Below, in pieces: positions 6,068 through 60,606 of a stretch of DNA of 64,000 bases. Positions within the stretch are counted from its first letter, which is position 1. Each line of letters starts with the position of its first letter. The notes under the pieces are model-generated. The model was not told the DNA's origin and ran no database searches. It worked only from the letters and a program-made list of their open reading frames with translations. The translations under genes and the position numbers were made by a program. This DNA is from Vicinamibacteria bacterium. Its GTDB lineage: Bacteria; Acidobacteriota; Vicinamibacteria; Vicinamibacterales; JAENWD01. The stretch spans positions 184,143-248,142 of the forward strand of contig CAWIMD010000002.1 in assembly GCA_963837165.1 (NCBI GenBank), in the 5' to 3' direction.

Positions 6068-6192
6068 GTCAACTCCCACGCTCCAACTCCCAACTCCCAA
6101 AGGACGAACCCGCCGACCGACTACGCTCGACGCCTGGGCGTTGCAGTTGGGCGTTGGGAATTGGGAATTGGGAGTTGGGAGTTGGGAGTTGA
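6068..6192. repeat. Inverted heptamer arrays: (AACTCCC)n at 6068-6100 versus (GGGAGTT/GGGAATT)n at 6147-6192
   Basis: Read directly: gtcaactcccacgctccaactcccaactccc ... gggaattgggaattgggagttgggagttgggagttgac. The arms are reverse complements around a loop of about 45 nt. The structure starts 10 nt after the lexA stop. Confidence 0.9.
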
Positions 6193-6201
6193 CGAACCTG
6201 C

Positions 6202-6807
6202 TCAGTACTTCCGCATCACCCCCACGACCACGCCCTGAATCTGGACCTGATCGGCGGGCACCAGGATCGGCTGCATCGAGGCGTTGGCCGGCTGCAGGCG
6301 CACCGTGTCGTGCTCGCGGTAGAACTTCTTGAGCGTGGCGTCGTGCCCGCCGAGCAGGGCAATCACCATCTCCCCGTTGTCGGCGCTCTTCCGGTCTTCG
6401 ACGATGACGAAGTCTCCGTCGCGGATCTGCTCGTCGATCATCGAGCTGCCGCGGACACGCAGGACGTAGGTGTCCTTGCGGCCGACCAGGTCTTCAGGCA
6501 CGGCGATGGTCTCGTTGGACGCGACGGCCTCGATGGGGCTGCCGGCGGCCACGAAGCCCAGCAGTGGCAGCTCGACGGCGCGCCCGCCGGCGCGCGTCGG
6601 CACCAGCTCGACCGAGCGGCTGCGATTCCACGCGCGTTTGATGAAGCCCTTTTCCTGCAGGTTGGTGAGGTGCTTGTGCACCGTCGCCAGGGATGACAGG
6701 TTGAAGCGGCGTCCGATTTCCTCCAGGCTCGGCGCGTAGCCATGTCGCTGGATGAACTCGTTGAGATAGTCGAGGATCTCGCGCTGGCGCTTGGTGAGGG
6801 GCATCAT
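6202..6807 (-). CDS. lexA: LexA repressor (SOS regulator, S24 peptidase)
   Basis: MMPLTKRQREILDYLNEFIQRHGYAPSLEEIG... winged HTH, an AAG cleavage site (FVAAGSPIEA), and the Ser/Lys motifs VRGSSM and LKKF. Confidence 0.95.
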   Translation of the reverse strand: MMPLTKRQREILDYLNEFIQRHGYAPSLEEIGRRFNLSSLATVHKHLTNLQEKGFIKRAWNRSRSVELVPTRAGGRAVELPLLGFVAAGSPIEAVASNETIAVPEDLVGRKDTYVLRVRGSSMIDEQIRDGDFVIVEDRKSADNGEMVIALLGGHDATLKKFYREHDTVRLQPANASMQPILVPADQVQIQGVVVGVMRKY

Positions 6808-6812
6808 GTCGC

Positions 6813-6845
6813 GCGTATGTTACGCAAAGGAAAGGCGAAGGTCAA
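6813..6845 (-). promoter_or_regulatory. lexA promoter (TTGACC-17-TAACAT) with an overlapping 13-bp palindrome GCGTAtgtTACGC
   Basis: On the minus strand, TTGACC lies at 6845-6840, a 17-nt spacer follows, and TAACAT lies at 6822-6817. The -10 ends 9 nt before ATG 6807, so the mRNA is leaderless or nearly so. The palindrome at 6813-6825 overlaps the -10. Confidence 0.45.
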
Positions 6846-7878: not shown

Positions 7879-7891
7879 GAGCACTCGAGTA

Positions 7892-7968
7892 CAGCACCTT
7901 CAGCACCTCCAGCACCGCACCTTCAGCACCTCCAGCACCCCAGCATCTTCAGCACCCCGCCTCCAGCG
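7892..7968. repeat. Tandem array, unit about CAGCACCTY (8-9 nt)
   Basis: cagcaccttcagcacctccagcaccgcaccttcagcacctccagcaccccagcatcttcagcacc. Begins 14 nt after the kinase stop. Confidence 0.8.
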
Positions 7969-11355: not shown

Positions 11356-11871
11356 GTGGCGGACGTGCAGAGCAGCGGGTCCCGCCTGGCGGTCTGCCCC
11401 GGGTCGTTCGATCCGTTGACGCTCGGGCACGTGGATCTCGTCGGCCGGGCGGCGCGGCTGTTCGACCGGGTCGTCGTCGCGATCCTGGCCAACGCCGAGA
11501 AGACGCCACTGCTGCCGCAGGACGAGCGGGTGCGCCTGGCACGCGAGGTGTTCGCCGATCTGCCGGGCGTCGAGGTCGCGACCTTCGACGGGCTGCTGGT
11601 GGACTTCGCCGCTTCGCGCGGGGCCGCGGCGGTCGTGCGCGGCCTCAGGAGCGCGGCGGACGTGGATTTCGAGTGGCCGATGACGATGATGAACCGGCAC
11701 CTGCGGCCGTCGCTGGACACGGTGTTCCTGCCGACCGCCGCCTCGCTCGGACATCTCAGCTCGCGGCTGGTGAAGGAAGTCTGGCGCCTCGGCGGCGACG
11801 TGCACGGTCTGGTGCCGCCGCCGGTCGAGGCGCGGTTGCGCGCGCTCCGGGCGGAGGCCCGGACGCGGTAA
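11356..11871 (+). CDS. coaD: Phosphopantetheine adenylyltransferase
   Basis: AVCPGSFDPLTLGHVDLVGRAARLFD... and ISSRLVKEV-type C-terminus (LSSRLVKEVWRLGGDV). GTG start at 11356. Confidence 0.88.
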   Translation: MADVQSSGSRLAVCPGSFDPLTLGHVDLVGRAARLFDRVVVAILANAEKTPLLPQDERVRLAREVFADLPGVEVATFDGLLVDFAASRGAAAVVRGLRSAADVDFEWPMTMMNRHLRPSLDTVFLPTAASLGHLSSRLVKEVWRLGGDVHGLVPPPVEARLRALRAEARTR

Positions 11872-11882
11872 GGAGCGGAGTC

Positions 11883-13094
11883 ATGCTGGCGGAACGGATG
11901 GGTCGGGTGTCGGCGTCGCCGACGCTCAAGGTGCTGGTCGAGGCCGAGAAGCTGAAGCAGCAGGGCGTGGACGTCGTGGAGTTCGGCGCGGGAGAGCCCG
12001 ATTTCCCGACGCCGGATCACGTCAAGGCGGCGGCGCGCACCGCGATCGACCAGAACTTCACCCGCTACACGCCCGCGTCCGGCACCGGCGAGCTCAAGCA
12101 GGCGATCGCCGACCGCTATCGGTCGATGTACGGCGTGGACTACAAGCCGAACGAGGTGATCGTCACCGCCGGCGGCAAGCAGGCGCTCTACAACGCGGCG
12201 CTGGCGCTGTTCGGACCCGGCGACGAGGTCATCACCCACGCGCCGTGCTGGCCGACGCTCATCGAGCAGGTGCGCCTGTCCGACGCGACGCCGGTGCTGG
12301 TGCGCACGCACCCGGAGGACGGGTTCACGATCCACGCCGATGCGATCCTGAACGCCGTGACGCCGGCCACGCGCGGCATCATCGTCAACTCTCCCTGCAA
12401 CCCGACCGGCGCGCTGATGGACGAGGTCCAGATGGCGCAGCTGGTGGACGGGGCCACCGGCCGTGACATCTGGGTGATCGTGGACCTCTGCTACGAGCAG
12501 CTCATCTACGAGCCGGTGCCGCACAATCTGCCGCGCCTGCTCGTCGAGCGCATGCGCGACCGCACGATTCTCTGCGGCTCGGCCTCGAAGTCGTACGCGA
12601 TGACGGGCTGGCGCTGCGGCTGGACGCTCGGCCCCGCCGAGGTCGTCGCGGCCTGCAACGCCATCCAGAGCCACTCCACGTCCAACGTGGCGTCGATCTC
12701 GCAGAAGGCGGCGCTGGCGGCCATCACCGGCCCGCAGCAGTGCGTGAGCGACATGCTGGCGGAGTACTGCACGCGCCGCGACGCGATCCACGGCTGGCTC
12801 ACCGCCGATCCGCGGATCAAGTGCGTGAAGCCGGCGGGCGCCTTCTACCTCTTCGTGGACATCTCGGCGTTGCTGTCGCCGGACGGCATCCGCACGTCGG
12901 CCGAGTTCGCCGAGCGCCTGCTGCACGAAGCGCACGTCGCGCTCACCGCGGGCGAGGGCTTCGAGGCGCCGGGCTTCCTGCGGATCTCGTACGCCACCTC
13001 GATGGATCGGCTGAAGGAAGGCACGCGGCGCATCCAGGCCTTCATCCAGAAGCTCGAGCAGGAAGGCAAGGTACCGTCGGTCGCCCAGGCCTGA
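11883..13094 (+). CDS. Class I pyridoxal-phosphate aminotransferase (aspartate aminotransferase-like)
   Basis: Track ORF 11673..13094, start ATG 11883. GEPDFPTPDHVKAAA, NSPCNPTGA and SASKSYAMTGWRCGW (PLP lysine). Confidence 0.88.
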   Translation: MLAERMGRVSASPTLKVLVEAEKLKQQGVDVVEFGAGEPDFPTPDHVKAAARTAIDQNFTRYTPASGTGELKQAIADRYRSMYGVDYKPNEVIVTAGGKQALYNAALALFGPGDEVITHAPCWPTLIEQVRLSDATPVLVRTHPEDGFTIHADAILNAVTPATRGIIVNSPCNPTGALMDEVQMAQLVDGATGRDIWVIVDLCYEQLIYEPVPHNLPRLLVERMRDRTILCGSASKSYAMTGWRCGWTLGPAEVVAACNAIQSHSTSNVASISQKAALAAITGPQQCVSDMLAEYCTRRDAIHGWLTADPRIKCVKPAGAFYLFVDISALLSPDGIRTSAEFAERLLHEAHVALTAGEGFEAPGFLRISYATSMDRLKEGTRRIQAFIQKLEQEGKVPSVAQA

Positions 13095-14485: not shown

Positions 14486-14541
14486 CCGGCTCGTGAGCTG
14501 CCGTCGGGTGCAGCTGCCGGCCGCTCAGCACGGCACCCAAG

Positions 14542-14919
14542 TCAAGCGCCGACGCCGACTCTCTTGCAGCGCACCCTCACATAAGGGTGGTCTCGCATCG
14601 TCAAATCAGTTAACGAGTGTCCGTCTTCGGACAGCCCAAAGCGCCGAGTCGAGTGCCAAACCTGTCCTTCGCCAGATGATTCAAGGTCGACCTCTATTAC
14701 CCTTTTGCTCAATACCTTCACGGCGAGGACTCGACCACGACTCGCATAGAAGTCGACTCGATCCGCGTGTATGGCGAGGCTCGACTCAGATGGAACGCCA
14801 CATTCGGCCTGACTGGCAGCCCATTTACCACGAAATCGATCCGGGACCGTCGCCTGGCCTCGAGCAAGGACCGGTATCGCAAGCAAAGACGCGGACACTA
14901 GCGACAGGCAGCGTCGCAC
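14542..14919 (-). CDS. Exported hypothetical protein (island cargo)
   Basis: 125-aa ORF with a signal-like N-terminus MRRCLSLVSASLLAIPVLARG. Lies in a visibly lower-GC stretch. No family recognised. Confidence 0.45.
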   Translation of the reverse strand: MRRCLSLVSASLLAIPVLARGQATVPDRFRGKWAASQAECGVPSESSLAIHADRVDFYASRGRVLAVKVLSKRVIEVDLESSGEGQVWHSTRRFGLSEDGHSLTDLTMRDHPYVRVRCKRVGVGA

Positions 14920-15019
14920 GTGACGCCTCCATGAGTGCGGCTAACGGTCGCGCTTCAGCCGCAGCGGCCGATGGTCGCGCCAGCCGCTGTCGGCTGCAAG
15001 GGCTCGTTGGGCGGCGTGT

Positions 15020-15232
15020 TCACACCGCTGGCGTGTCGCCTGGGCTCGCATGCCACAGGGCCGGGACCCACTCCGACTTCCGAAGCGAACGCAAGGCATC
15101 TTCCGCCGGCACGAGGTCTCCGCGGTTGGCTTCGGCGATTGACTCGAGCAGCTCAGCCTCGGCCGTGGCATCAAGGACGAAGCTCTCGTCGCCCTCGCGA
15201 GTCAGAACGGTCAAGGCCGTGCCCTCGGTCAC
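15020..15232 (-). CDS. Possible small antitoxin-like ORF (orphan)
   Basis: 3' part of track ORF 15020..15469, with a candidate GTG start (VTEGTALTVLTREGDESFVLD...LESIAEANRGDLVPAEDALRSLRK). It resembles Phd/RelB-type antitoxin tails. There is no partner toxin. Confidence 0.3.
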   Translation of the reverse strand: MTEGTALTVLTREGDESFVLDATAEAELLESIAEANRGDLVPAEDALRSLRKSEWVPALWHASPGDTPAV

Positions 15233-15774
15233 GGATATCTCCGAGTCGACTGAGCACGCCACCGGTCGGGATCGACGCCAGCGGCCAACAGCCAGAACGT
15301 GAGCATCCCCTCGCCGACCATTCCGGGCGCCATCGCCAGCGGGCCGAGCCGTTTCGCGAGCGGCGGGTGGACATAGGTGAGCCAGCCCAGTCCCGCGACG
15401 ACCAGCAGCACGCCAATCGCCCTGGGCAGGAAGGTGGCCTTCAGCGTGAGCCAGCCCAGGCCGATGCAATACGCGCCGAACAGCACGAGCGTGTTGATGG
15501 GGAACCTCACGACACCGACATCGCTGAGCACTCCGATGGTGAGCGCGGTGACGCTGAACAGCGCAGTCCCGAGCGATCCCGTCCGGCTCACCGGCTTGTA
15601 GAGGTGGTACAGCATCACTGTCACCACGTAATAGACTGCGGCGGCGACGAGGTTGGCTGCCAAGCGCGCGTCGCCTGACGTGCTGAGGCCGGCAATCCCG
15701 AAGACGAAGACCAGCAGGTAGAAGACGCCGGCGATCCGCGCGAATCGGCGCGGGTTGGTGTGGAGTAGGCTCAT
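15229..15774 (-). CDS. DUF4386-like integral membrane protein
   Basis: 3' part of track ORF 15229..16143, starting at ATG 15774 (MSLLHTNPRRFARIAGVFYLLVFVFGIAG...). About 5 TM helices. Confidence 0.65.
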   Translation of the reverse strand: MSLLHTNPRRFARIAGVFYLLVFVFGIAGLSTSGDARLAANLVAAAVYYVVTVMLYHLYKPVSRTGSLGTALFSVTALTIGVLSDVGVVRFPINTLVLFGAYCIGLGWLTLKATFLPRAIGVLLVVAGLGWLTYVHPPLAKRLGPLAMAPGMVGEGMLTFWLLAAGVDPDRWRAQSTRRYP

Positions 15775-16143
15775 GTCCGGCCTCTGCTCATCGCGTTCGT
15801 TTCCGGAAGACGGTTGCGCGGCACGCACAACGCTCGCGGCTGACTCGAGTTGCCCTGGCTCAGGGCTGCCCGATAACCCTCGCCCAAGATCACGACGCTC
15901 AGCTTTCCGTTCGAGTACCAGACTTGAAACTGTCTGGCCGACCGATGGGCGGGATCGGACATGCGATGGAAGCCGAGATCGAGCAGGAAGACGGCATTTG
16001 AATACATCCAAGTTCGCGGCCACGATGTTCTCGTCCTCGAGACGCGCATCAGGACCGGCAGCCTGGAGCGCCGAAACGGCCAGTTGCGCCTCAACGAGCT
16101 GCGAGAACCTCCGAACCACTACACGCCCGGGCCCCTCGCTCAT
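15771..16143 (-). pseudogene. DUF2007-like (putative signal-transducing) gene, frameshifted
   Basis: Frame 1 reads RVVVRRFSQLVEAQLAVSALQAAGPDARLEDENIVAAN. The conserved continuation WMYSNA... is in the next frame, after an extra T at AAC-T-TGG near 16008. Downstream similarity is poor. Confidence 0.4.
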
Positions 16144-16258
16144 CTCGGCCTAACGACCTGCGGCTCACGTGCGGCGGCCGCACGACGATGATTCAAGCGG
16201 GAGGTTACCACCACGGCCGCCGTCACGTGCAGCCGCTTGTCAGACCGCGTGGGTTCGT

Positions 16259-16279
16259 AGTATGATGTTTTGTCATACT
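16259..16279 (+). promoter_or_regulatory. Perfect 7-bp inverted repeat AGTATGA-N7-TCATACT just upstream of mazE (candidate TA operator)
   Basis: Read directly. It ends 3 nt before the mazE ATG. Confidence 0.4.
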
Positions 16280-16282
16280 GCC

Positions 16283-16525
16283 ATGCCTAAAACCAAGGTC
16301 GCCCTCACCATTGACGCCGCCTTGCTGGAGCGCGTTGACCACCTGGTGGCACGCGCGCGTTTCCGGAACCGAAGCCAGGCGATTGAAACCGCACTCGCCG
16401 AGAAGCTGGCACGCTTGGCCCGGACGCGGCTGGCCGAAGAGTGCGCCAAGCTCGATCCGGCCGAGGAACGGCAGCTCGCGGAGGAAGGTCTCGCGGCGGC
16501 CGGCGACACATGGCCCGAATACTGA
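16283..16525 (+). CDS. mazE: Ribbon-helix-helix antitoxin (MazE/CopG-like)
   Basis: MPKTKVALTIDAALLERVDHLVARARFRNRSQAIETALAEKL. The 3' end overlaps the mazF start by 16 nt. Confidence 0.75.
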   Translation: MPKTKVALTIDAALLERVDHLVARARFRNRSQAIETALAEKLARLARTRLAEECAKLDPAEERQLAEEGLAAAGDTWPEY

Positions 16526-16845
16526 GAGGCGAGATTCGCTGGGCCGATCTCAACCCGGTGCGCGGCCACGAGCAGGCTGGGGAGCGCCCGGTGTTGGTCC
16601 TGAGCAACGACGTCTTCAACGATCGTTCGGGCACCGTGATCGCATTGGCGCTGACCAGCCAGGAGCCACGGGCCGGTTACCCTCTCACGCTCGAGCTCAC
16701 GGCCGCCCGATTGCCGAAACGATCGTGGGTGAAGGTCAGCCAGATTCGCACGCTCTCGACGGAGCGAATCGGCAAACGATTGGGCCGGGCCTCGGACGAG
16801 GAACTCGGCAAGGTGCTCGACGGACTCCTCGAAATAGTCGGGTAG
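16510..16845 (+). CDS. mazF: MazF/PemK-family endoribonuclease toxin
   Basis: MARILRGEIRWADLNPVRGHEQAGERPVLVLSNDVFN...VIALALTSQ...SWVKVSQIRTLSTERIGKRLG. Confidence 0.9.
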   Translation: MARILRGEIRWADLNPVRGHEQAGERPVLVLSNDVFNDRSGTVIALALTSQEPRAGYPLTLELTAARLPKRSWVKVSQIRTLSTERIGKRLGRASDEELGKVLDGLLEIVG

Positions 16846-16946
16846 ATTCTCGAGCAGCGGTCTGACACGCCAAATCAGCCGCGCACCGTGGTGACATGAT
16901 GGCGCGAGACGATCGGCGCGTCGGCTCCAGTTGGAGGTTGGATTAG

Positions 16947-17471
16947 TTAGGTATCTCGATTCGTACGGGTCGAACGTAAGTCCGATCGCTTCACCCCGGT
17001 TCGACGTTCGATCTGTACAACGATCCGGTCGAGCGCTGCCCTTGACATGCGCCGCAACAGAGGAACTCGTTCAACGACCCACGAAGGATACGGCGCCAAG
17101 TTGTAGTAAGACCATATGAAGAGTCGGCCTGCTGTGGACCGCCGGAGAATCTTGTCTCGAAACGCGCGTAGCAGCTGAACCTCGATTAGATCCTCGTCTC
17201 CGTAGGCTGCCGTCGCTACGAAGCACCCCTTGCGAAAGATCACTTTCTTGCAAGCCGGGCATGTCCAGCGCTCGCGACTTCCGACCGAGCAACTTCCGCC
17301 GCCTACGCTGGTTACGATCGGCGTAATCGTCTTGCCGCATTTCGGGCACTTTGTCCCCTCGGCAGTCGCCGCCAGCCGCGGCGGCGCAGCCATCGGTCGG
17401 CCACAGTGAGGACATGCTGGAGCGCGATCGCTGATCTCCTTTCCGCAATCCGGACACTGTGTCAGCGCCAT
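16947..17471 (-). CDS. Zinc-ribbon protein with a C-terminal CFVATAAYG-type domain
   Basis: Three CxxC pairs (CPDCG...CPHCG, CPKCG, CPACK), then GCFVATAAYGDEDLIEVQLLRAFRDKIL...YYNLAPYPS. Lower-GC region. Confidence 0.55.
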   Translation of the reverse strand: MALTQCPDCGKEISDRAPACPHCGRPMAAPPRLAATAEGTKCPKCGKTITPIVTSVGGGSCSVGSRERWTCPACKKVIFRKGCFVATAAYGDEDLIEVQLLRAFRDKILRRSTAGRLFIWSYYNLAPYPSWVVERVPLLRRMSRAALDRIVVQIERRTGVKRSDLRSTRTNRDT

Positions 17472-17605
17472 CGACGGTCCTTTTGGTTCCGGTATCAGAG
17501 TATGCCCAACGTCCGCGGCGCACCGCGGCGCGTCACCGGTCTCGATGCCGCGCCGTCGGCTGCAGCCGCTTGTTAGCGGCCCACGCGGTATAGGCCGGGG
17601 ACATA

Positions 17606-18836
17606 GTTAACACAAGTCCGGGCACATCGTTTACACCAGGAGGATGCCCTGGATGGAAACGCATGTGGTGAAGGAACGGCTCGCGTTCGTGCACGACCTG
17701 ACGAGTGGCCACTGGTCGATGACCGAGCTGTGCGAGCGGTACGGCGTGAGCCGTCCGACGGGGTACAAGTGGATCGCGCGCCATGCGGCCGAGGGCGGCG
17801 CGGGCCTGGACGACCGAAGTCGTGCGCCGCAACGGTGCCCGCATCGCACCAGCGAGGCGCTGGAGGCGCTGATCGTCGCGGCCCGACGCGAGTACGGCTG
17901 GGGGGCGAAGAAGCTGTTGCGCGTGCTGCGGACGCGGCACCCGCACCGCCTGTGGCCGGCGCGCAGTACCGTCAATGCGATCCTCGAGCGGCACGCGCTA
18001 CTGCACAAGAATCGGCGCCGGCAGAAGTGGGCCCATCCTGGAGCGGTCGGTCTCTCGACGCAGCGGCCGAATCAGATCTGGCCCGCGGACTTCAAGGGCC
18101 AGTTCCTCCTGGGCGACGGCCAGTACTGCTATCCGCTGACGGTGACCGATCACTTCAGCCGCCGCGTGCTGGCCTGCCACGGGCTACGCTCCGTGAAGAC
18201 CCGCGAGGCGAAGCCGGTCTTCCGCGCGCTCTTCCGCGAGGTGGGCTTGCCGGATGCCATCCGCACCGACAACGGTGTGCCGTTCGCCTCGACCGGCATT
18301 CACGGCCTCGCGGCACTGAATGTCTGGTGGATGCAACTCGGCATCGTGCACCAGCGCATCACGCCCGCGAGTCCACAAGAGAACGGCACCCATGAGCGGA
18401 TGCATCGCGAGCTCAAGCGAGAGACGGCCCGTCCGGCGGCCGGCAGTCTCCGCGCGCAGCAGCGTCGATTCGATGCCTTCTGCCAGCGCTACAACAACGA
18501 ACGGCCGCACGAGGGGATCGGCGACCGCACGCCCAGTGCCCTCTGGTCCCCCTCGCTCCGCGAGTATCCCGAGCGTCCGACGCCGCCCGACTACCCGCTG
18601 CACATGGAGGTCCGACGGGTCAGCACCGCGGGCACCTTCCGCCTCCACTCGCGTCAGCCGTTTCTCAGCCACGCGCTCGGGGGCCACGACATCGGCCTCG
18701 AAGAAGTCGGCGATGGCATTTGGAACATCGTTTATTACAGTACGTTGCTCGGCAAGATTGACGTGCGCACGGGGAGCATTACTGGGATCTAGCGCGACAT
18801 GAAAGGTGTAAAGGATGCTGCCGGACTTTCGTTAAC
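17606..18836 (+). mobile_element. IS481-family insertion sequence (about 1.23 kb)
   Basis: Imperfect 32-bp terminal inverted repeats: gttaacacaagtccgggcacatcgtttacacc (17606-17637) versus the reverse complement of ggtgtaaaggatgctgccggactttcgttaac (18805-18836). They enclose the transposase ORF. No target-site duplication found. Confidence 0.75.
17644..18792 (+). CDS. IS481-family DDE transposase (HTH + integrase core)
   Basis: 382 aa. N-terminal HTH (MTELCERYGVSRPTGYKWIARH), then WPADFKG...TVTDHFSR...IRTDNGVPF...PQENGTHERMHRELK (DDE/rve core). Confidence 0.9.
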   Translation: MPWMETHVVKERLAFVHDLTSGHWSMTELCERYGVSRPTGYKWIARHAAEGGAGLDDRSRAPQRCPHRTSEALEALIVAARREYGWGAKKLLRVLRTRHPHRLWPARSTVNAILERHALLHKNRRRQKWAHPGAVGLSTQRPNQIWPADFKGQFLLGDGQYCYPLTVTDHFSRRVLACHGLRSVKTREAKPVFRALFREVGLPDAIRTDNGVPFASTGIHGLAALNVWWMQLGIVHQRITPASPQENGTHERMHRELKRETARPAAGSLRAQQRRFDAFCQRYNNERPHEGIGDRTPSALWSPSLREYPERPTPPDYPLHMEVRRVSTAGTFRLHSRQPFLSHALGGHDIGLEEVGDGIWNIVYYSTLLGKIDVRTGSITGI

Positions 18837-18849
18837 GATCAACCCGTCC

Positions 18850-20165
18850 GTTCAGGGGCTGAGCTGAGCGAATTCGCTTGTACTCGCGTCGGGCGTTCGG
18901 TACGCTGCGGGGGTGACGACGGGGCCCGCGCGCGCGCTGCTGCGACGACTGGGCCAGTTCCTCGATCAGTTCAGTGCGTGTTTCAATCGGCAGCCGCAGC
19001 GGGACGCGGCCACCCAGTACATCGACGGGCTCTTCGGCGACAGCGAGCGGAAGTCGATGCAGGCCATGCACGGGCGCCTGGGCGACGCGCGCGACTATCA
19101 AGCCCTGCAGCACTTCATCACGCACTCGCCGTGGGACGCCGCGCGCGTCTGGGCGCAGCTGCGCGCGAGCGTGCCGATCCGGACCGGCATCCTGGCCCTC
19201 GACGACACCGGGTTCCCCAAGCAGGGCACGCAGTCGCCGGGCGTGCAGCGGCAATACTGCGGCGCGCTCGGTAAGATCGGCAACTGCCAGGTGGCGGTGA
19301 CGAGTGCGTTGATTGACCGACGGGCGCACGTGGCCGTTGGCCTTCGAGCTCTATCTCCCCACGTCGTGGACGGACGACCCGGCGCGATGCGCGGCCGCCG
19401 GCATCCCGCCGACCGTGCGGTTCCGCGAGAAATGGCGCATCGCCCTGGCGCAGATTCGGACCGTCCTGCAGGCCGGGTTCACGATCACCGGCGTCGTCGT
19501 CGATGCAGACTACGGCGCGAACGCGGCGTTCCGCGCGGGGGTGGAACGCCTCGGTCTCGCCTACGGCGTCGCGATTCGGGGCGAGGCGGTGTTCACCGTG
19601 CCGGGCGTGGCCGGGCCGCTCTCCGCGATCGCCCTCGCCGAGTCGGCCCCCGACGACGCCTGGGAGATCGTGACCTGGGGCACGGGCACCGCGGGTCCGC
19701 TTACCGCCCAGTTCTGTGCGCTGCGGGTGCGTCCCACGGAAGAACGGGGCGATCGCTGGCTGCTGTGCGAGCGCTCCGCGAGCGACGAGCGGAAGTACTA
19801 CCTCGTGCACCTCGCTGCGACGAGTCCGCTCGTCGATCTGGTCGCCCTCGCGCGCAGTCGCTGGCCGATCGAACAGCAGTATCGCGAGCTCAAGGACGAC
19901 CTCGGACTCGATCATTTCGAAGGGCGCACCTATCAGGGCTGGACGCATCACGTCGTGCTCACGGCCGTGGCGTTCGCCTTCCTGCAGATCGAACGAGCAC
20001 GCCCCGACGACGGCCCGCGACCCACGCTGCCGATCGTTCGCGGTTGGGTCCGCGAGATCATGGGCCTGCTCTACGTGCTGCACAATCGGCGACTGCTCGC
20101 CATGCTCGACAGCTTCCGCCGAAACGCACCGCTGCGAAGGTGACAATGTAGTGTTAGCCCGCCTC
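18850..20165 (+). mobile_element. IS701-like insertion sequence, ends not defined
   Basis: Contains the split transposase below. Begins within about 15-75 nt of the IS481 right end. I could not identify convincing terminal inverted repeats, so the coordinates are approximate. Confidence 0.45.
18913..20143 (+). pseudogene. IS701-family (DDE_5/IS4-like) transposase interrupted by a 1-nt frameshift near 19317
   Basis: Frame A (18913-) reads ...LDDTGFPKQGTQSPGVQRQYCGALGKIGNCQVAVTSALID. The homologous continuation (TDGRTWPLAFELYLPTSW...VVVDADYG...RWPIEQQYRELKDDLGLDHFEGR) is in track ORF 19313..20143. The junction is att gac C gac ggg. Confidence 0.7.
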
Positions 20166-20169
20166 TAGT

Positions 20170-20577
20170 CTAGTCGATGACCATGCCGTAGATGGTCGGC
20201 TTGGAGATGGTCTTGATGACGTCGCCAGGCAGGCCCTCAACTTGAACCCTCGTCTCAGTCATGCTCAGGTCACGCGCCATCGATTGCGGCGTTGGCTCGA
20301 ATTCGACGACGACGTGAAAGTAGAGACAATCCCGGTAGGCGAAGTTCCTTCCCGTCTGGAGCCCACCCTCCGGTGTGAATACCTTCAGCAGATCGGCACG
20401 CGTCATGCCGGGCTTGATGCCCTCCATCCGCTTCATGCTCTGGATCACCCAACTGACGTGGCCCCGCAACGCGGCGTCCGCAGATGGTTGCTGGCCGACC
20501 GGCACGGAGGACGACGTGGTTCCTGAGGCCATGACAGCTAATGCAGAAGCGAGCAGGAGTTGTCGCACCATCGACAC
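20170..20577 (-). CDS. Exported hypothetical protein (island edge)
   Basis: 135-aa ORF with the signal-like N-terminus MSMVRQLLLASALAVMASG. Lower GC. No family recognised. Confidence 0.45.
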   Translation of the reverse strand: MSMVRQLLLASALAVMASGTTSSSVPVGQQPSADAALRGHVSWVIQSMKRMEGIKPGMTRADLLKVFTPEGGLQTGRNFAYRDCLYFHVVVEFEPTPQSMARDLSMTETRVQVEGLPGDVIKTISKPTIYGMVID

Positions 20578-20909
20578 ACCTCTGATCTTGTCGGCCTAAC
20601 TACTGATTGGGCTGACCAGCTTTCTCCTTCGCCGCCTGCAAACTGGTCGGCATATTTCAGTCGCGGGCGGCGGGTCAGTCTGGCCATTCAGTGGGTGACC
20701 GGCTGCATCCTAGCACCCGTTGATACGCGCCACCACTGATCGGCTGCGTGCCGTGGTTACCTGACCAGGGTTCCACCGCACCGGCCAGTGCCCCCGAAGA
20801 CGCTCCCCGCCGGGGCTCGGGGCGTCCGGCGGGCGGGCGCTTCGACTCGCGCGCGTGCGGAACGTGAAGCAGGCCGTCGTCACTGCACGGCCCTCGCGGA
20901 CGCCACGCT

Positions 20910-23363
20910 TCAGCTGGTCCGAAGGGCGGTCAACGGCTCGACGGCAAGCGCACGCTGCACGGGCGCGATGCACGCGAGCACCGTGACCAGGAGCAGGGCG
21001 GCAGCCACGCCGAGGAAGGTGAGTGGGTCCATGGCTCCCACGCCGAACAGTTGGCTGGCGAGCCACCGCGTCGCCAGCAGGCTGCCGCCCCAGCCGAGAA
21101 GGATCCCGAGGGCAGCGCTGCGGGCGACCTTCCCGAGGACGAGCGCCCGGATCCTGTGTCGCGTCGCCCCGAGCGCCACCCGCAGCCCGATCTCGCGCGT
21201 GCTCTGGCTGACTGTATACGCCATCACGCCGTAGATGCCCACCGCGGCCAACAGGAGGGCCAGCAGGGCGAAGCCGCTCAGGAATCCGGTCGAGAACCTG
21301 CGGCGGGCGAGTGATTCGGACGCCCACGGCCCCAGTGCACGTGCAGCCGTGACAGGCAGGTCCTTGTCCAGGGCGAGCAGCGCTCGCCTGGCCCGATCGC
21401 CCACCGCCGCGGGGTCGCCGTCGGTTCGAACGACGAACGTCATGCCCGCCAGTTCCGTCCAGGGCGCAAACGGGAATTGCGTCACCGGGAGAAACACCTC
21501 CGGACGCGACTCGGCATCGACGCCGTTCTGTTTCATGTCGGCGACGACGCCCACGATCTCGCGGTATGGCTGCTGACCCTGCGGTCCGCCCTCTCGCACC
21601 TGTCTTCCAACGGCGCTTCCTCCCGGCCACTGCCGTGCCGCAAACGTCCGGTTGACAATGGCAACCGGCCGCGTGCGTCGAGTATCTGCGTCGGAAAAAT
21701 ACCGCCCCGCCAGCAGAGGCGTGCGCATCGCTTCCAGATACCCCGGGGCGACGATGTTGGAGGCCGCCGTCGGGATATCGACAACGGAACTGACCGCGTG
21801 ATCGGCCATGGTGAATGCCGTGTCCACGCACACGCCCGTGAGCGGGGGGCATTGCACAGCGCCGGCCGCCCCTACGCCTGGAATGGCCTTCAGGCGCTCG
21901 ACGGCCTGCGTCAGCAGCAGCACCCTGCGTTCGGGATCCACGTACTTCGTCGGCGGTATCGTCAGTTCCAGTGAGAGCAGGTTGGCGGTCTCGAATCCCG
22001 GGTTGACCTGCGTTGCGCGCGCCAGGCTTCGCACGAGCAGCCCGGCACTGGTCAACAGCACGAGCGCGATCGCGATCTCGCTCGTCAGCAATGCAGATCG
22101 CAGGGTCTGCCCGCCCCGGGTGATTCCACCGCTCCGGCCGCCCCGGTTGACCGAGGCGCTCAGATTCCCGCAGGCGAACTGGATCGCAGGAGCGCTGCCG
22201 AACAGCAGCCCGCTTGCCACCGACACTGCCAGCGCAAATCCGAGGACGGTCGCATCCACCGGGACCGCTGCGACCGGGATGAGCGGCGCAGGCGCCGCTC
22301 GCAGCAGCACGGGGAGCGCGGCCAGCGCCAGCGCCACGCCGATCGCGCCGCCCGTCACCGACAGCATCGCGCTCTCGATGATCAACTGCTGCGCCAGTCG
22401 ACGACGGCCGACGCCCAACGCGATCCGGACGGCCATTTCCTGCTCGCGCGAGACGGATCGCGACAGCAGCAGGTTGCCGACGTTCACGCAGGCGATCAGG
22501 AGCACGCACGCGACCGACGCGAGCAGGATGAGGAGCACGTCTCGCGTGCTCCCGAATTTGAATTGATAGAGCCCGGTGATCGTCGCCGTTAGCCCCGTGT
22601 TCGACTGAGGATACTCCCTCTCGAGACGCCGCATGATGACGTCCATTGCCGTGCGCGCGGCCTCGCGGGGAACACCGCGCCTCAGGCGGGCGATCACCAG
22701 CATGTCCGGATGATTGCCACGCCTCAGCCACTCCGGGTCCGCGCCGTGCAGGCCGATCGGCAGGTAGATGTCGATGCGCTTATCGAAGAAGCGGAACGTC
22801 GGTGGCAGCACCCCGACGACGGTGTAGGCAGTCCCGTTCAGGGCCAGGGATCGTCCGATCACCTCCGAGCGCCCGCCCAGTCGCGTCGTCCACAGATCGT
22901 GACTGACGACCACGGCCAGCGGACCGCCCGGACGGTCGTTCCATTCATCGAACGCACGACCGACCACCGGATCGGCGCCAAGCAGGGGGAAGAACGCCGA
23001 GGAGACCTCCGCGGCCCTGACGACGGACGCCTCGTCGTCACCGCGGAACGTGACGTCGGCCACCCGGTAGGCAGCCATCTGCTCGAACACACGATTCTGC
23101 TCGCGCCAGTCTCGATAGTCCATCCAGGACACCGTCCGGCTGCCGTGTTCGCGCCTGGACTCGTCGAGCACCACGAGCCGGTCCGGATCCGGGAAGGGGA
23201 GTGGTTTCAGGAGGACGGCATTGACGAGACTGAACGTCGCGGTGTTCGCGCCGATGCCGAGTGCCAGCGTCAGGAGCGCGACCGCCGAGAATCCAGGATC
23301 CCGGAGGAACAGCCGCACACCGTATCGCATGTCCTGACACAGCGTCTCGAGCAGGCGTGCCAT
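20910..23363 (-). CDS. ADOP-family duplicated FtsX/MacB-type ABC permease
   Basis: Track ORF 20910..23393, start ATG 23363 (MARLLETLCQDMRYGVRLFLRDPGFSAVALLTLALGIGANTATFS). Two MacB-periplasmic + FtsX modules. C-terminus ...PVQRALAVEPLTALRTS. Confidence 0.85.
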   Translation of the reverse strand: MARLLETLCQDMRYGVRLFLRDPGFSAVALLTLALGIGANTATFSLVNAVLLKPLPFPDPDRLVVLDESRREHGSRTVSWMDYRDWREQNRVFEQMAAYRVADVTFRGDDEASVVRAAEVSSAFFPLLGADPVVGRAFDEWNDRPGGPLAVVVSHDLWTTRLGGRSEVIGRSLALNGTAYTVVGVLPPTFRFFDKRIDIYLPIGLHGADPEWLRRGNHPDMLVIARLRRGVPREAARTAMDVIMRRLEREYPQSNTGLTATITGLYQFKFGSTRDVLLILLASVACVLLIACVNVGNLLLSRSVSREQEMAVRIALGVGRRRLAQQLIIESAMLSVTGGAIGVALALAALPVLLRAAPAPLIPVAAVPVDATVLGFALAVSVASGLLFGSAPAIQFACGNLSASVNRGGRSGGITRGGQTLRSALLTSEIAIALVLLTSAGLLVRSLARATQVNPGFETANLLSLELTIPPTKYVDPERRVLLLTQAVERLKAIPGVGAAGAVQCPPLTGVCVDTAFTMADHAVSSVVDIPTAASNIVAPGYLEAMRTPLLAGRYFSDADTRRTRPVAIVNRTFAARQWPGGSAVGRQVREGGPQGQQPYREIVGVVADMKQNGVDAESRPEVFLPVTQFPFAPWTELAGMTFVVRTDGDPAAVGDRARRALLALDKDLPVTAARALGPWASESLARRRFSTGFLSGFALLALLLAAVGIYGVMAYTVSQSTREIGLRVALGATRHRIRALVLGKVARSAALGILLGWGGSLLATRWLASQLFGVGAMDPLTFLGVAAALLLVTVLACIAPVQRALAVEPLTALRTS

Positions 23364-23459
23364 CGTGACGCGATCATCGCGCGGACCCGCCATTGTCGCA
23401 AGGCATCCAGTGCGTCATAATATGGCTCTTTCGCGACACGCTCGAGCCGGGACCAGAGG

Positions 23460-24260
23460 ATGGGCACGATGCGACAGGTGAGCCGCGTCAGAGACCGTGA
23501 CCGCGATCCGGGGCCCGGCATCGCGATCGCCTCCTTCGCGCGCGATTACCCGGCCGATGCCCGAGTCGACGAGCACCTTCACGAATCCCATCAGCTGATG
23601 TTCGCCACCCGCGGCGTCATGGAGGTGTCGGCAGGGCGCAGCCACTGGCTCATTCCACCGCAATTTGCGATCTGGATGCCGGCAGGGACCCTGCATCGGA
23701 TACGCATGGCCAGCGCCGTGTCGATGAGGACGCTGTATCTCCGGCGCGGCATCGCGCGAGGGCTGCCGAGTACGTGCACGGTGATCCACGTCTCTCCGCT
23801 CTTGCGCGAGTTGATCGTCGAAGCCGTGAAGGCGGAAACGATCACCATGAAGGCACCCCGTCATGTCGCGCTGCGGGTGTTGATCCTCGCGGAGCTTGGA
23901 CAGGCGCGTTCGGTCCCGACGCTGGTCAGACTGCCTCAGGATCCTCGTGCGCTGCGCGTGGCTCAGGCCTTCCTTGCCAACCCGGCCACCCGCGTGCGTG
24001 TTGCCGAGCTGTGTCGGCCGTTCGGTGCGACCGGCCGCACCATCCAGCGGCTGTTCCTGAGAGAGACCGGCATGGACTTCGAGACGTGGCGGCGTCACGT
24101 CCGCCTGATGAAGGGCATCGAACTGCTCGCCGATGGCCACTCGGTGACGGCCGTCGCGTTCGCCCTTGGGTACCAGCAGCCCAACCCCTTCATCAAGCTC
24201 TTTCGCGACACGCTGGGGACGACGCCGCGATCGTGGATGTCGGCATTGAAGGGTGGGTAG
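23460..24260 (+). CDS. AraC-family transcriptional regulator (cupin + HTH)
   Basis: N-terminal cupin-like region (HLHESHQLMFATRGVMEV) and a C-terminal AraC HTH (GRTIQRLFLRETGMDFETWRRHVRLMKGIELL...ALGYQQPNPFIKLFR). Confidence 0.85.
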   Translation: MGTMRQVSRVRDRDRDPGPGIAIASFARDYPADARVDEHLHESHQLMFATRGVMEVSAGRSHWLIPPQFAIWMPAGTLHRIRMASAVSMRTLYLRRGIARGLPSTCTVIHVSPLLRELIVEAVKAETITMKAPRHVALRVLILAELGQARSVPTLVRLPQDPRALRVAQAFLANPATRVRVAELCRPFGATGRTIQRLFLRETGMDFETWRRHVRLMKGIELLADGHSVTAVAFALGYQQPNPFIKLFRDTLGTTPRSWMSALKGG

Positions 24261-24266
24261 ACCATG

Positions 24267-26001
<1,735 letters not shown>

Positions 26002-26382: not shown

Positions 26383-26411
26383 TTGACACCAGAAATTGCG
26401 AGGCCTATACT
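26383..26411 (+). promoter_or_regulatory. rho promoter TTGACA-17-TATACT
   Basis: ttgaca at 26383-26388, an exact 17-nt spacer, tatact at 26406-26411. It is followed by a C-rich leader of about 90 nt before ATG 26509. Confidence 0.5.
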
Positions 26412-26508: not shown

Positions 26509-27882
<1,374 letters not shown>

Positions 27883-27887
27883 GAATA

Positions 27888-27943
27888 GACGATTGACGAT
27901 TGACGATTGACGATTGACGATTGACGATTGACGATTGACGATT
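27888..27943. repeat. Tandem heptamer array (GACGATT) x8
   Basis: Eight perfect units. Starts 6 nt after the rho stop. The last unit overlaps the TAA (27942-27944, minus strand) of the permease remnant. Confidence 0.95.
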
Positions 27944-33936: not shown

Positions 33937-33941
33937 GAGCC

Positions 33942-40349: not shown

Positions 40350-40420
40350 GGCAGGCCTGAAAGCCTGCGCTACATGTGAATCGGCGACCATCATCTGTAG
40401 CGCAGGGCTTCAGCCCTGCC
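40350..40420 (-). terminator. Pair of GC-rich stem-loops, also a 25-nt imperfect inverted repeat, between cbpA-like and clpB
   Basis: ggCAGGCctgaaaGCCTGcgctaca ... tgtagcgCAGGGCttcaGCCCTGcc. Begins 4 nt after the cbpA-like stop. No U tract. Confidence 0.35.
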
Positions 40421-40424
40421 CACG

Positions 40425-41849: not shown

Positions 41850-42618
<769 letters not shown>

Positions 42619-42873
42619 TTACACCGCCTCAGGCGCAGCCGTCGCCGACAGCTGGCGGTCCAGCTCCGCCAGCGCCTCCTCGAGCATTCTCCGATGCGCG
42701 GGGCGGGTGGCCACCGCAAGGTCGGCCACTACGCGCGCGCGGGCCAGCAACACGTCGCGCCGGCGCGCCTCGGCTGCCAGGGCCGCGTCCGACAGCCGGC
42801 GCCCGGGATCCCCGGCCGACGCGGCGTCGGCCTGCTGCGACTCGATCGCTTTGCTCTCCCATCCTCGCGCCAT
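42619..42873 (-). CDS. Small conserved-looking hypothetical protein (84 aa, N-terminus MARGWESKAIESQQ)
   Basis: Track ORF. Helical, Arg/Ala-rich. I recall the N-terminal ARGWESK motif from hypothetical proteins, but I cannot name a family. Confidence 0.5.
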   Translation of the reverse strand: MARGWESKAIESQQADAASAGDPGRRLSDAALAAEARRRDVLLARARVVADLAVATRPAHRRMLEEALAELDRQLSATAAPEAV

Positions 42874-42877
42874 CAGT

Positions 42878-44333
<1,456 letters not shown>

Positions 44334-46030: not shown

Positions 46031-46073
46031 GGGTCTATGGGTTGATGGGTTGATGGGTTGACGGGTTCTTGGG
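46031..46073. repeat. Tandem octamer array (GGGTTGAT-like) x5
   Basis: gggtctat gggttgat gggttgat gggttgac gggttctt ggg. Lies between the desaturase stop (46078) and the kinase start (46007). Confidence 0.85.
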
Positions 46074-56747: not shown

Positions 56748-56807
56748 ACCGGTTCGCTGGCTCCCGGTTCCCGGTTCGTGGGAGGATCGGAAGACAGGAG
56801 GCGTGGA

Positions 56808-57236: not shown

Positions 57237-57238
57237 CA

Positions 57239-59023: not shown

Positions 59024-59144
59024 CGCGGGAGACCGGGTTGCACCGGTCGGACCAGTTGATATCATACGCGCCGCGATGACCTCTCGCCGGCGGGGCCCCA
59101 TGGGAGACCGCCCGGGCACGGCCCGCGAATACAGGAGGCGTGCG

Positions 59145-60536
59145 ATGAAGCGTGCAGTGCAGGACCTCATGGACCGCCGCGGCTTCTTCCGGTCGATGGG
59201 CACCGCCGCCGGCGGCGCCGCGGCGCTGAGCCTGGCGGCGAGCCCCGAGGCCGAGGCGGCCGAAGCCGCCCGGCTGGTGCAGTCCAACGTGAAGCGGGCA
59301 TCGGAGCCGTCGGCGCTGAAGATCACCGACCTGCGCGTGGCGGTCGTGGTCAACGCGCCGATGACGTGCCCGATCATCCGCGTGGACACCAACCAGGGCA
59401 TCGTCGGCTGGGGCGAAGTCCGCGACGGCGCCAGCGAGACGTATGCCCTGATGCTCAAGGCCCGCCTGCTCGGCGAGAACCCCTGCAACGTGGACAGGAT
59501 CTTCCGGAAGATCAAGCAGTTCGGCGGGCCGTCGCGCCAGGCCGGCGGCGTCTGCGGCGTCGAGATGGCGATGATGGACCTGGCCGGCAAGGCCTGGGGC
59601 GTGCCCTGCTGGCAGCTGCTCGGCGGAAAGTTCCGCGACACGGTGCGCCTGTACGCCGATACCACCGAGACTCCCGATCCGAAGGAGCAGGGCCGCCGGC
59701 TCAAGGCGCGCATGGACCGCGGTCTGACGTTCCTCAAGCAGGACTTCGGCATCGATCTGCTGAAGGACGTGCCCGGGGCCCTCAGCATGCCGTCGGGCCT
59801 CACGCCCTGGGGCGGCGACCGGCTCGAGCACCCGTTCACCGCGGCACAGATCACGGACAAGGGCATCGAGTTCCTGTCGGACTGGGTCGGGCAGATCCGC
59901 GCGGTGATCGGCATGGACGTGCCGCTGGCGTCCGACCACTATGGCCACATCACCCTGACGAGCTGCATCAAGCTCGCGCGTGCGATGGAGACGTGGAACC
60001 TCGCGTGGATGGAAGACATGATGCCGTGGCAGTACGGGAACCTGCTGAAGCAGATCCACGACGCCGTGGACATCCCGATCCTGACCGGCGAGGACATGTA
60101 CCTGAAGGAGGACTTCGCGAAGCTGATCGACATGGGCGCGGTGGACATGATCCATCCGGACCTGGCGAGCTCGGGCGGCCTGATCGAGACCAAGAAGATC
60201 GGGGACTACGCCCATGAGCACGGGGTCGCCATGGCGATGCACTTCGCCGGGTCTCCCGTGTGCTTCATGGCGAACGTCCACACGGCGGCGGCCTCGGAGA
60301 ACTTCATCGCGCTCGAGCACCACTCGCTGGACGTGCCGTGGTGGGAAACGCTCGCCACGAAACCCGACGGCACGCCCTTCGTCGATCACGGCTTCGCGCA
60401 CGTACCCGACAGTCCGGGTCTCGGCGTGGAACTGAACGAAGCGGTCGTGCGCCAGCACCTGCGCCCGGGAACGGGCTATTTCGACCCGACCCCGGCGTGG
60501 GACACGGTCCGGAGCAACGATCGGCTCTGGAGTTAG
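59145..60536 (+). CDS. Enolase-superfamily (mandelate racemase/muconate lactonizing-like) enzyme with a twin-arginine signal
   Basis: Start ATG 59145, after AGGAGG (59134-39). MKRAVQDLMDRRGFFRSMGTAAGGAAALSLAASPEA (Tat-like). ITDLRVAVV...VDTNQGIVGWGE, GVCGVEMAMMDLAGKAWGVP, and metal ligands LASDHYG, AWMEDM and TGED. Confidence 0.78.
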   Translation: MKRAVQDLMDRRGFFRSMGTAAGGAAALSLAASPEAEAAEAARLVQSNVKRASEPSALKITDLRVAVVVNAPMTCPIIRVDTNQGIVGWGEVRDGASETYALMLKARLLGENPCNVDRIFRKIKQFGGPSRQAGGVCGVEMAMMDLAGKAWGVPCWQLLGGKFRDTVRLYADTTETPDPKEQGRRLKARMDRGLTFLKQDFGIDLLKDVPGALSMPSGLTPWGGDRLEHPFTAAQITDKGIEFLSDWVGQIRAVIGMDVPLASDHYGHITLTSCIKLARAMETWNLAWMEDMMPWQYGNLLKQIHDAVDIPILTGEDMYLKEDFAKLIDMGAVDMIHPDLASSGGLIETKKIGDYAHEHGVAMAMHFAGSPVCFMANVHTAAASENFIALEHHSLDVPWWETLATKPDGTPFVDHGFAHVPDSPGLGVELNEAVVRQHLRPGTGYFDPTPAWDTVRSNDRLWS

Positions 60537-60542
60537 ATTTCA

Positions 60543-60606
60543 GGATTTGATGGGAGGGATTTGATGGGAGGGATTTGATGGGAGGGATTTGATGGGAGGG
60601 ATTTCA
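60543..60606. repeat. Tandem 14-nt array (GGATTTGATGGGAG) x4.5
   Basis: Four perfect units plus a partial one. Lies between convergent stops at 60536 and 60618. Confidence 0.95.

Follow-up and report, generated by a model that had tools for sequence, protein, structure and literature searches.

A window of 64,000 nucleotides from a Vicinamibacteria bacterium (contig CAWIMD010000002.1, positions 184,143 to 248,142; 70% G+C) carries, among genes such as lexA, rho, terC and uxaC, a series of short-unit tandem arrays that occur almost exclusively in the short transcribed segment immediately after stop codons. Arrays were detected with Tandem Repeats Finder (TRF) and by direct reading of the window sequence. 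Nine arrays listed in an earlier sequence-only reading, together with a reverse-complement partner at 6068-6100, were all recovered, and a tenth array absent from that list was added (the weak one in Table 1). The window arrays are real and non-random: in 30 dinucleotide-preserving shuffles of the window, our chance model, no array reached four copies or more and none had a TRF score of at least 70. The gene identities named earlier were borne out by Pfam and by the gene calls on a public contig of 99.9% identity. The closest named homologues of the window Rho (86-89% identity) are from Vicinamibacterales, Acidobacteriota, and a duplicated MacB/FtsX permease in the window is of acidobacterial type, which fits the same phylum. 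Rfam and tRNA scans of the window were empty.

Table 1. Tandem arrays of the window and the gene ends beside them (plus and minus denote gene strands)
Unit	Position (TRF position)	Period (nt)	Copies	Neighbouring gene ends
CAACTCC-like	6068-6100 (6070-6100)	7	4.4	12 nt from start of 103-aa gene (5744-6055, minus)
GGGAGTT/GGGAATT	6145-6192 (6145-6191)	7	6.7	9 nt past lexA stop (6202-6204, minus)
CAGCACCTY	7880-7968 (7880-7956)	9 or 23	7.8; irregular, 8- and 6-nt variants	begins 1 nt past pfkB stop (7878, plus); next gene start ~8013
CTACTGC	24267-24326	7	8.6	convergent gap; AraC stop (24260, plus) 6 nt away; PMT/GT39 stop (24272-24274, minus) is TAG of a GCAGTAG unit inside array
(GACGATT)8	27888-27943	7	8.0, perfect	fills gap from rho stop (27880-27882, plus) to permease-remnant TAA (27942-27944, minus)
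GGGGATCT	28838-28972 (28838-28971)	8	16.4	15 nt from truncated 5' end of permease remnant; 80 nt upstream of HEAT-repeat gene (29052, plus)
GCAGTAG/GCAGCAG	42545-42618	7	11	fills convergent gap; TerC stop TAG (42549-42551, plus) in first unit; 0 nt from 84-aa gene stop (42619, minus)
CTACTGC	42878-42933 (42878-42931)	7	7.7	fills gap from uxaC stop (42930-42932, minus, within array) to 84-aa gene start (42873)
GGGTTGAT	46031-46073 (46037-46067)	8	3.9 by TRF; 4-5 units	4 nt past desaturase stop (46078, minus); 23 nt upstream of histidine-kinase start (46007, minus)
(CCGGTTC)4, weak (TRF score 35)	56749-56777			1 nt after AddA/UvrD-like helicase stop (56747, plus)
GGATTTGATGGGAG	60543-60606 (60543-60604)	14	4.4, perfect	convergent gap; 6 nt after MR_MLE stop (60536, plus); 11 nt before hydrolase stop (60618, minus)

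As called by TRF, six of the 11 window arrays have period 7. CTACTGC or its complement GCAGTAG occurs at three window sites (24267, 42545 and 42878), two inverted pairs are present (6068/6145 and 42545/42878), and the GGGGATCT unit recurs ~2.4 kb to the left of the window, 14 nt past an amidase stop (19181-19279 of L001, a piece of the comparison assembly described below). The units are thus not all unrelated, as had been proposed, and a period of 7, 8 or 14 nt that is never a multiple of 3 does not cover CAGCACCTY, which has 9 nt. As TRF also located arrays of period 6, 12 and 24 inside genes of the window, the rule is for the most part a matter of which units can be tolerated within coding sequence; where observed, it is a known consequence of frame-breaking units being kept out of genes. 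In-frame coding repeats lie within the HEAT-repeat gene (30661-30737, period 6, 12.8 copies) and a BlaR1-like M56 peptidase gene (33016-33101, period 12, 7.2 copies). Written as RNA, array units read GGGAGUU, GGGGAUCU and GGCAGUA. Each GGGGATCT unit includes GATC, which gives ~16 close-set potential Dam-type methylation or MboI-type restriction sites at 28838-28972.

Arrays adjoin stop codons in the window

Eight of the nine listed arrays lie 0-10 nt from a stop codon, in agreement with the sequence-only reading. Array edges are 0-11 nt away from the stops of lexA, pfkB, AraC, rho, the 84-aa gene, the desaturase, the enolase-family MR_MLE gene and an alpha/beta hydrolase gene. Stops located inside an array are those of PMT/GT39, TerC and uxaC, each being the TAG of a GCAGTAG unit; as the PMT stop falls within the array at 24267-24326, the last 15 PMT codons are array-encoded. 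Between the rho stop and the edge of its array there are 5 nt. The exception is the array at 28838-28972, which is not at a stop and faces gene 5' ends. As a baseline for stop distance we used a curated gene map and the array-free non-coding positions of the window, with a threshold of 15 nt. Eight of nine arrays fell within this distance of a stop compared with 7.9% of the array-free non-coding positions (binomial P~1e-8), which bears out the suspected enrichment. That several arrays fill convergent gaps also held, with four such gaps (24261-24271, 27883-27941, 42552-42618 and 60537-60617) being filled almost completely. Non-coding gaps of 300-800 nt had no array, despite holding most of the free DNA of the window.

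Gene-end placement and strand polarity across phyla

We next consider arrays outside the window. A scan for (CTACTGC)3, with one genome per species, gave at least 120 stretches, and 120 listed independent loci (~820 kb) were analysed; all counts in this section come from these loci unless stated otherwise. Among the matches listed were Pyrinomonadaceae, Blastocatellia, Vicinamibacterales and Bryobacteraceae of the Acidobacteriota, Planctomycetota, Bacteroidota, Mesorhizobium and other Alphaproteobacteria, Chloroflexia, Gemmatimonadales, a cyanobacterium and others. Of the arrays that TRF detected in these loci, 267 had period 7 (131 with the query unit and 136 with other units), 25 had period 8, 31 period 14, eight period 10 and five period 11. 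Many of the commoner non-query units were one base off GGCAGTA.

Genes in these loci were called with our own codon-model gene caller, checked against the public gene calls of the window. For 184 arrays with genes called on both sides, we compared position classes with the expectation from array-free gap length. Convergent gaps held 48 arrays (24.9 expected), co-directional gaps 121 (120 expected) and divergent gaps 11 (35.1 expected), so that arrays were enriched in convergent and depleted in divergent gaps (chi-square over the three gap types, P=6e-9); the inside of genes accounted for 4 of the 184. Within co-directional gaps the stop was the closer gene end for 76 arrays and the start for 45 (P=0.006). 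A metagenome scan for (GGGGATCT)3 returned 40 contigs, mostly of 64-73% G+C and many of them short. There the stop preference was weakly reproduced, with 13 of 34 arrays within 15 nt of a stop versus 5 of 25 within 15 nt of a start.

Placement depended on the strand. With GCAGTAG as the sense strand, arrays started at the stop (median -2 nt), 26 of 31 at a distance of 15 nt or less; with CTACTGC as the sense strand, the median distance from the stop was 69 nt. At the junctions some genes end in the first TAG of the array, and others end in their own TGA or TAA with the array 0-3 nt later. Inverted pairs included 47 of the 113 (GCAGTAG)n arrays, and the opposite arm order was seen 0 times. The layout of a pair is stop-(GCAGTAG)n-loop-(CTACTGC)n, often followed directly by a ribosome-binding site and the start of the next gene. 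Variant units were mirrored between the two arms, and fold energies of the pairs ranged from -57 to -127 kcal/mol.

Unpaired arrays held the same polarity (15 of 17 flush versus 2 of 12). Arrays of other units were flush at the stop in 31 of 46 cases with a G-rich sense strand and in 6 of 51 with a C-rich one (Fisher P=2e-8). Among the G-rich cases this was seen for 14 of 21 without stops in the unit and 17 of 25 with them, and among the C-rich cases for 4 of 38 and 2 of 13, respectively. As the pattern holds with or without a stop codon in the unit, it is no open-reading-frame artefact. Two candidate explanations of the polarity were ruled out. Flushness does not stem from the all-frame stops in GCAGTAG, as genes ending in their own TGA or TAA show it too and, for other units, it tracks G-richness of the sense strand. 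Nor are CTACTGC-sense arrays a separate class far from stops, since most of them are the distal arm of an inverted pair.

Orthologous gaps keep the slot and change the occupant

Relatives were represented by five syntenic loci around rho, from genomes with 88-93% Rho identity. In the convergent gap between FAD-oxidase and PMT, hairpins of the form (GCGCATG)n...(CATGCNC)n reach from stop to stop in L123 (-68 kcal/mol) and L124 (-58 kcal/mol), L126 has a 9-nt array and L128 an ordinary hairpin; in the window this gap is split by a 10-kb island, with (CTACTGC)n adjoining PMT. L123-L125 have a GC hairpin, GGCGGGGCgttaGCCCCGCC, between rho and the permease, where L126 and L127 have inverted CACAGAGG/CCTCTGTG octamer arrays and the window has (GACGATT)8. 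A period-8 array is present between PadR and the HEAT gene in all four relatives sharing that gap, as is (GGGGATCT)16 in the window. Because orthologous gaps hold different arrays or hairpins, the gene-end slot is conserved and its occupant turns over.

In L127 an IS110-family element (11402-13003) lies between the inverted CACAGAGG/CCTCTGTG arrays just downstream of rho, and array-armed hairpins may serve as insertion targets. The island (~14486-24260) is of lower G+C and was inserted into the FAD-oxidase/PMT gap, which measures 0-90 nt in relatives; it includes an RHH/PemK toxin-antitoxin, IS481 and DDE_5 transposases, a duplicated permease and an AraC regulator, and the array at 24267-24326 lies at its right edge. 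Downstream of rho, 27945-28822 (minus strand) is a remnant of a duplicated MacB/FtsX permease that is intact in relatives. Residues 557-891 only are left, across three reading frames, PadR and the first 556 codons having been deleted; the deletion ends 15 nt from the GGGGATCT array. Just upstream of PadR, relatives carry two copies of a 22-nt unit, ATGTCTACAATGCAGGCATTGT (L123 14420-14462, L124 14413-14455, L127 16036-16077), which is probably the PadR operator and is gone from the window together with PadR.

Copy number differs between near-identical assemblies

We compared the window with an independent ENA metagenome assembly (ERZ25039539 contig_22010, 874,655 bp, 99.7-99.9% identical; pieces L001, L002 and L129). 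Of the nine listed arrays, the compared stretches covered all but the one at 60543-60606, and they also took in the partner arm at 6068. All eight arrays and the partner arm were present in the ENA assembly, and six arrays, 24267-24326 among them, and the partner arm had identical length in both. The GGGGATCT array at 28838 has 16.4 units in the window and 10.4 in the ENA assembly, a difference of six units, and the uxaC-side array at 42878-42933 is ~1 unit shorter in the ENA assembly. As copy number differs at two arrays against a background divergence of ~0.1-0.3% between the assemblies, the arrays are hypervariable, in line with what slippage predicts. Replication slippage is the most likely cause of the length change.

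These results bear on the proposal that the arrays are a lineage-specific class of 3'-end element rather than a product of slippage. Its first half stood in part, the tie to gene 3' ends being non-random. Lineage-specific they are not: (CTACTGC)3 is found in >120 stretches from many phyla, and similar behaviour has been published for Xanthomonas and Nostoc (PMC4692102). The exclusion of slippage was likewise not upheld, as unit-step differences between 99.9%-identical assemblies are a signature of ongoing slippage.

About 20 single-base indels also separate the two assemblies (for example at 3756, 8175, 10170, 38131, 39033, 47890 and 51727), with genes split in either; ClpB and the AddB-like gene are split in the ENA contig. 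Such indels are typical of long-read error, so reading frames in either assembly need care. That the arrays themselves are assembly artefacts is almost certainly wrong: although long-read-type indels are present in both assemblies, eight arrays and the arm at 6068 were found in the independent one, six and the arm at the same length. Arrays like them are also present in relatives that come from other samples, and genomes of isolates, Mesorhizobium for instance, have them too.

Inverted pairs fold and single arrays mostly do not

Inverted pairs can form a long GC-rich hairpin flush with the stop codon, which single arrays do not. The 6068/6145 pair folds with -82 kcal/mol (z=-6.0). The C-rich strand of single arrays is unstructured (z ~0 to +1.2), as in the pfkB-side array at 7880-7968, which on mRNA is C-rich, G-poor and unstructured (z=+1.2), and some G-rich strands are modestly structured. 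At least four tracts of three or more G (G3+ tracts) with 1-7-nt loops were found in the arrays at 6145, 28838, 46031 and 60543 and in one array just outside the window, and not in the other five. On the plus strand, 6145-6192 has seven G3 tracts, lexA mRNA seeing the C-rich side, and 60543-60606 has nine. A scan for hairpin-plus-U-tract terminators in the first 60 kb gave 16 sites compared with 16.2 expected, all inside genes by coordinate reading; by the listed coordinates, no canonical terminator site lay in a gene 3' gap of those 60 kb.

The arrays belong to a known repeat class

The window arrays are long simple-sequence repeats (LSSRs), a heptamer-biased micro/minisatellite class that goes by the name of STRR in cyanobacteria and of GGGNATC repeats in Xanthomonas. 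As reported in PMC4679880 and PMC4692102, Mrazek, Guo & Shah (2007) found heptamers to be the commonest LSSRs, especially in large high-G+C genomes, with units divisible by 3 inside genes and polymerase slippage as the suggested origin. The window arrays resemble LSSRs, as described there, in being near-perfect, head-to-tail and most often heptameric, in their setting (LSSRs being typical of large high-G+C free-living bacteria), in having non-multiple-of-3 units outside genes and multiples inside, and in the slippage origin. They have a short head-to-tail unit repeated beyond chance and show unit-step length instability. Exceptions to the placement rule in our data are three arrays of 9-nt units outside genes, one at 7880 and the others in L124 and L126. 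One window array has a 14-nt unit, beyond the 1-11-nt definition of LSSRs and their 5-11-nt class. As far as the survey is reported in those two papers, stop-flush placement and inverted pairing are not described, and Acidobacteriota are not among the highlighted genomes. What is new here is the extension of a known repeat class to the soil acidobacterial order Vicinamibacterales. A search of literature text for the array unit strings returned primer sequences only.

Named sub-families come close, and the window arrays fit neither their sequence and taxon definitions nor the palindrome that defines REP elements. In Xanthomonas and Nostoc, Rehm et al. (2015) reported arrays of GGGAATC and GGGGA(C/T)T that overlap the stop or lie no more than 50 bp from it on the coding strand, are under-represented between divergent genes, are transcribed, vary between related species and are sometimes inverted; the units GGGAATC and GGGGAYT form quadruplexes in vitro, no regulatory effect was found, and the role was left "to be elucidated" (PMC4692102). 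Likewise, window arrays lie near or overlap stops and include inverted copies. Measured against GGGNATC/GGGGA(C/T)T, the nearest window units are GGGAATT/GGGAGTT, one base from these G-rich heptamers, and the 8-nt GGGGATCT. In Xanthomonas and Nostoc one unit family dominates each genome, whereas seven or more unit types, several of them lacking G-tracts, occur in the 64 kb of the window. The rule on the coding strand holds in the 120 loci (31 of 46 versus 6 of 51), is weak in metagenomes and does not hold in the window.

The STRR heptanucleotide repeats of heterocystous cyanobacteria (Mazel et al. 1990, as cited in PMC4692102) are also 7-bp tandem units that are intergenic and form hairpins between or after genes, as arrays do here. 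Between hupS and hupL, STRR hairpins were proposed to act in transcript stabilisation, translation coupling or termination (PMC2670836). They differ in phylum and in the unit sequences of STRR1-3, and they form a small number of families spread over the genome. MacGregor (2015, PMC4679880) described TAACTGA direct repeats from marine Beggiatoaceae, cyanobacteria and Bacteroidetes, which are likewise intergenic heptamer arrays common to distant phyla and have all-frame stops in one orientation, so that genes can end in the array. They lie mostly just upstream of starts in 2-6 copies, in contrast to the 4-16 copies behind stops in the window.

The REP/BIME family shares with the window arrays that it is transcribed and extragenic, lies at gene 3' ends and in convergent gaps, is absent between divergent genes and varies in copy number. 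REP units are imperfect palindromes of 20-40 nt with a GTAG head, spread by RAYT transposases, and the family acts as hairpin-only mRNA stabilisers. Window units are 7-14 nt long and non-palindromic, and single arrays do not fold. A separate 31-nt element does fit: TTCACATGTAGCGCAGGCyTTCAGGCCTGCC, with its GTAG head and palindrome, lies at 40350-40380 (minus strand), flanked by the stop of dnaJ and the start of clpB, and an inverted copy lies at ~40396-40421; the window has one copy where the ENA assembly has three in tandem (L002 13948-14040). Phase-variation repeats, which have 1-5-nt units in promoters or 5' coding regions of surface genes, were rejected as a match, as the window units are 7-14 nt long and lie behind the stops of housekeeping genes.

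Further features of the window

The 84-aa gene between the arrays at 42545 and 42878 (42619-42873, minus strand) belongs to a conserved family of ~80 aa with 208 homologues, several from named Vicinamibacterales, and no Pfam domain; a homologue in another genome has no flanking arrays. That the inverted arrays round it form a mobile cassette is unsupported, as it is an ordinary conserved gene that is array-free elsewhere. Look-ups of exact protein matches to the AraC-like and GMC-oxidoreductase genes of the window gave none, probably owing to differences in start codon or to SNPs. Two near-consensus matches to sigma-70-type promoters (TTGACA-17-TATACT, 11/12) lie upstream of rho (26383-26411, plus strand) and upstream of the merR-dnaJ operon (41814-41786, minus strand).

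What the arrays may do at gene ends

On balance we favour the reading that slippage-driven repeats occupy, and probably derive from, a hairpin slot at gene 3' ends, in which they would have a terminator- or stabiliser-like role. The arrays are long simple-sequence repeats, they are unstable in length and they lie at gene 3' ends; a role in ending or protecting transcripts is plausible. In such a scheme, arrays probably grew from the 3'-end structure slot of genes, where slippage within hairpin stems and intrastrand template switching would keep the two arms symmetric. Like REP elements, they would mark transcript ends or protect mRNA by means of a hairpin alone. Single arrays might then be half-elements left after loss of one arm, or might act as G-quadruplexes when the sense strand is G-rich; those with a C-rich sense strand might offer an unstructured tract where Rho can load.

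The main rival holds that the arrays are functionless by-products: slippage repeats would arise anywhere, or at fork or RNA polymerase stalls at gene ends, and survive where they are harmless, frame-breaking excluding them from coding sequence and regulation from promoter regions. We regard such tolerated junk as a possible, if less probable, explanation. Several observations favour it and at the same time weigh against the hairpin slot. Units turn over quickly between relatives, 21 kb of L128 (from a 5.17-Mb contig) are free of such arrays, and convergent genes with 2-5-nt gaps (33937-33941 and 57237-57238) work without an element. Single arrays prevail in the window, and several window arrays have less structure than their shuffled counterparts. 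There is also no consistent strand rule in the window, where the G-rich and the C-rich strand face flush stops about equally often and the G-rich-strand polarity seen across phyla is absent. Presence or absence among relatives, copy-number polymorphism and the rarity of arrays inside genes (4 of 184) are further points for junk. Further points against the slot are that polarity among metagenome (GGGGATCT)n arrays is weak (8 of 17 versus 5 of 17), that our gene caller errs at an estimated ~10% of calls when its calls on the window are set against the public ones, and that the 3'-end function is something we only infer. The 10 nt after the 3' arm of the pairs hold 25% T compared with 18% in the background; lacking a U-tract, the pairs are ruled out as classical terminators. 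Tolerance alone predicts neither the arm order of 47 to 0 nor the flushness of G-rich arrays (31 of 46 versus 6 of 51), and the array-free window gaps of 300-800 nt, the persistence of array position in orthologous gaps of relatives and the mirrored arms of inverted pairs also speak against it.

The other readings rank lower than tolerated junk. G-quadruplex elements, in which G-rich arrays would fold into four strands in mRNA or displaced DNA and pause polymerase or block exonucleases, are consistent with the G3+ tracts of four window arrays and one outside, with the folding in vitro of the near-identical units GGGAATC and GGGGAYT (PMC4692102), and with the G-rich strand being sense at flush stops across phyla. 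We nevertheless consider them improbable, as G3 tracts are missing from (GACGATT)n, (CAGCACCTY)n and (CTACTGC)n, the C-rich strand is at about as many flush stops in the window as the G-rich one, and Rehm et al. saw no regulatory effect (PMC4692102). A shade less probable again is that C-rich, G-poor, unstructured strands serve as Rho entry sites directly after ribosome release from the mRNA. The pfkB, AraC, desaturase and hydrolase transcripts would suit Rho (~43-55% C, 0-14% G, fold z of at least 0 in three), 3' gaps lack canonical terminators and a rho gene is present. Yet the C-rich strand is flush with the stop in 6 of 51 cases only across the 120 loci, half of the window genes see the G-rich strand and some arrays are just 43-60 nt long.

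A mobile origin, with the arrays as the ends or leftovers of a small gene-end-targeting element of transposable or REP-like type, is very unlikely. GTAG is the head motif of REP elements, and GCAGTAG includes it; CTACTGC/GCAGTAG occurs at three sites in 64 kb and in many phyla, a true REP-like 31-mer is present, and an island boundary and a deletion junction each have one array at them. Against this, loops and flanks are unconserved, target duplications are absent, units differ at orthologous sites of relatives, and the gene between inverted arrays is an ordinary one, array-free elsewhere. By Pfam and the public gene calls, neither the window nor its flanks contain a RAYT or IS200-type gene, and array units other than GCAGTAG have no GTAG; a link between GCAGTAG and RAYT transposases is conceivable.

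Beyond the hairpin slot, a broader reading that we think unlikely, and less so than the quadruplex one, is that stop-flush tandem heptamers are an overlooked gene-end signal shared across phyla, made of a single G-rich array or a pair with the G-rich arm first, which would end or protect transcripts without a U-tract. Such a signal might act via a long hairpin, an RNA G-quadruplex or an R-loop and stand in for absent intrinsic terminators; built from slippage-prone units, its strength would be tunable.

Heptamer-biased arrays behind stops have long been seen in Xanthomonas, Nostoc and other bacteria. To these our data add general rules: arrays are flush with the stop, the G-rich strand is usually sense, and pairs always have the G-rich arm first and have mirrored arms. 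For gene callers they carry a warning, as open frames read through arrays; the public annotation has a 406-aa "protein" across two arrays in the region of rho and the permease remnant. If the arrays end or stabilise transcripts, they would help to explain how genes end in high-G+C bacteria without classical terminators, and if they have no such role, they are useful hypervariable markers.

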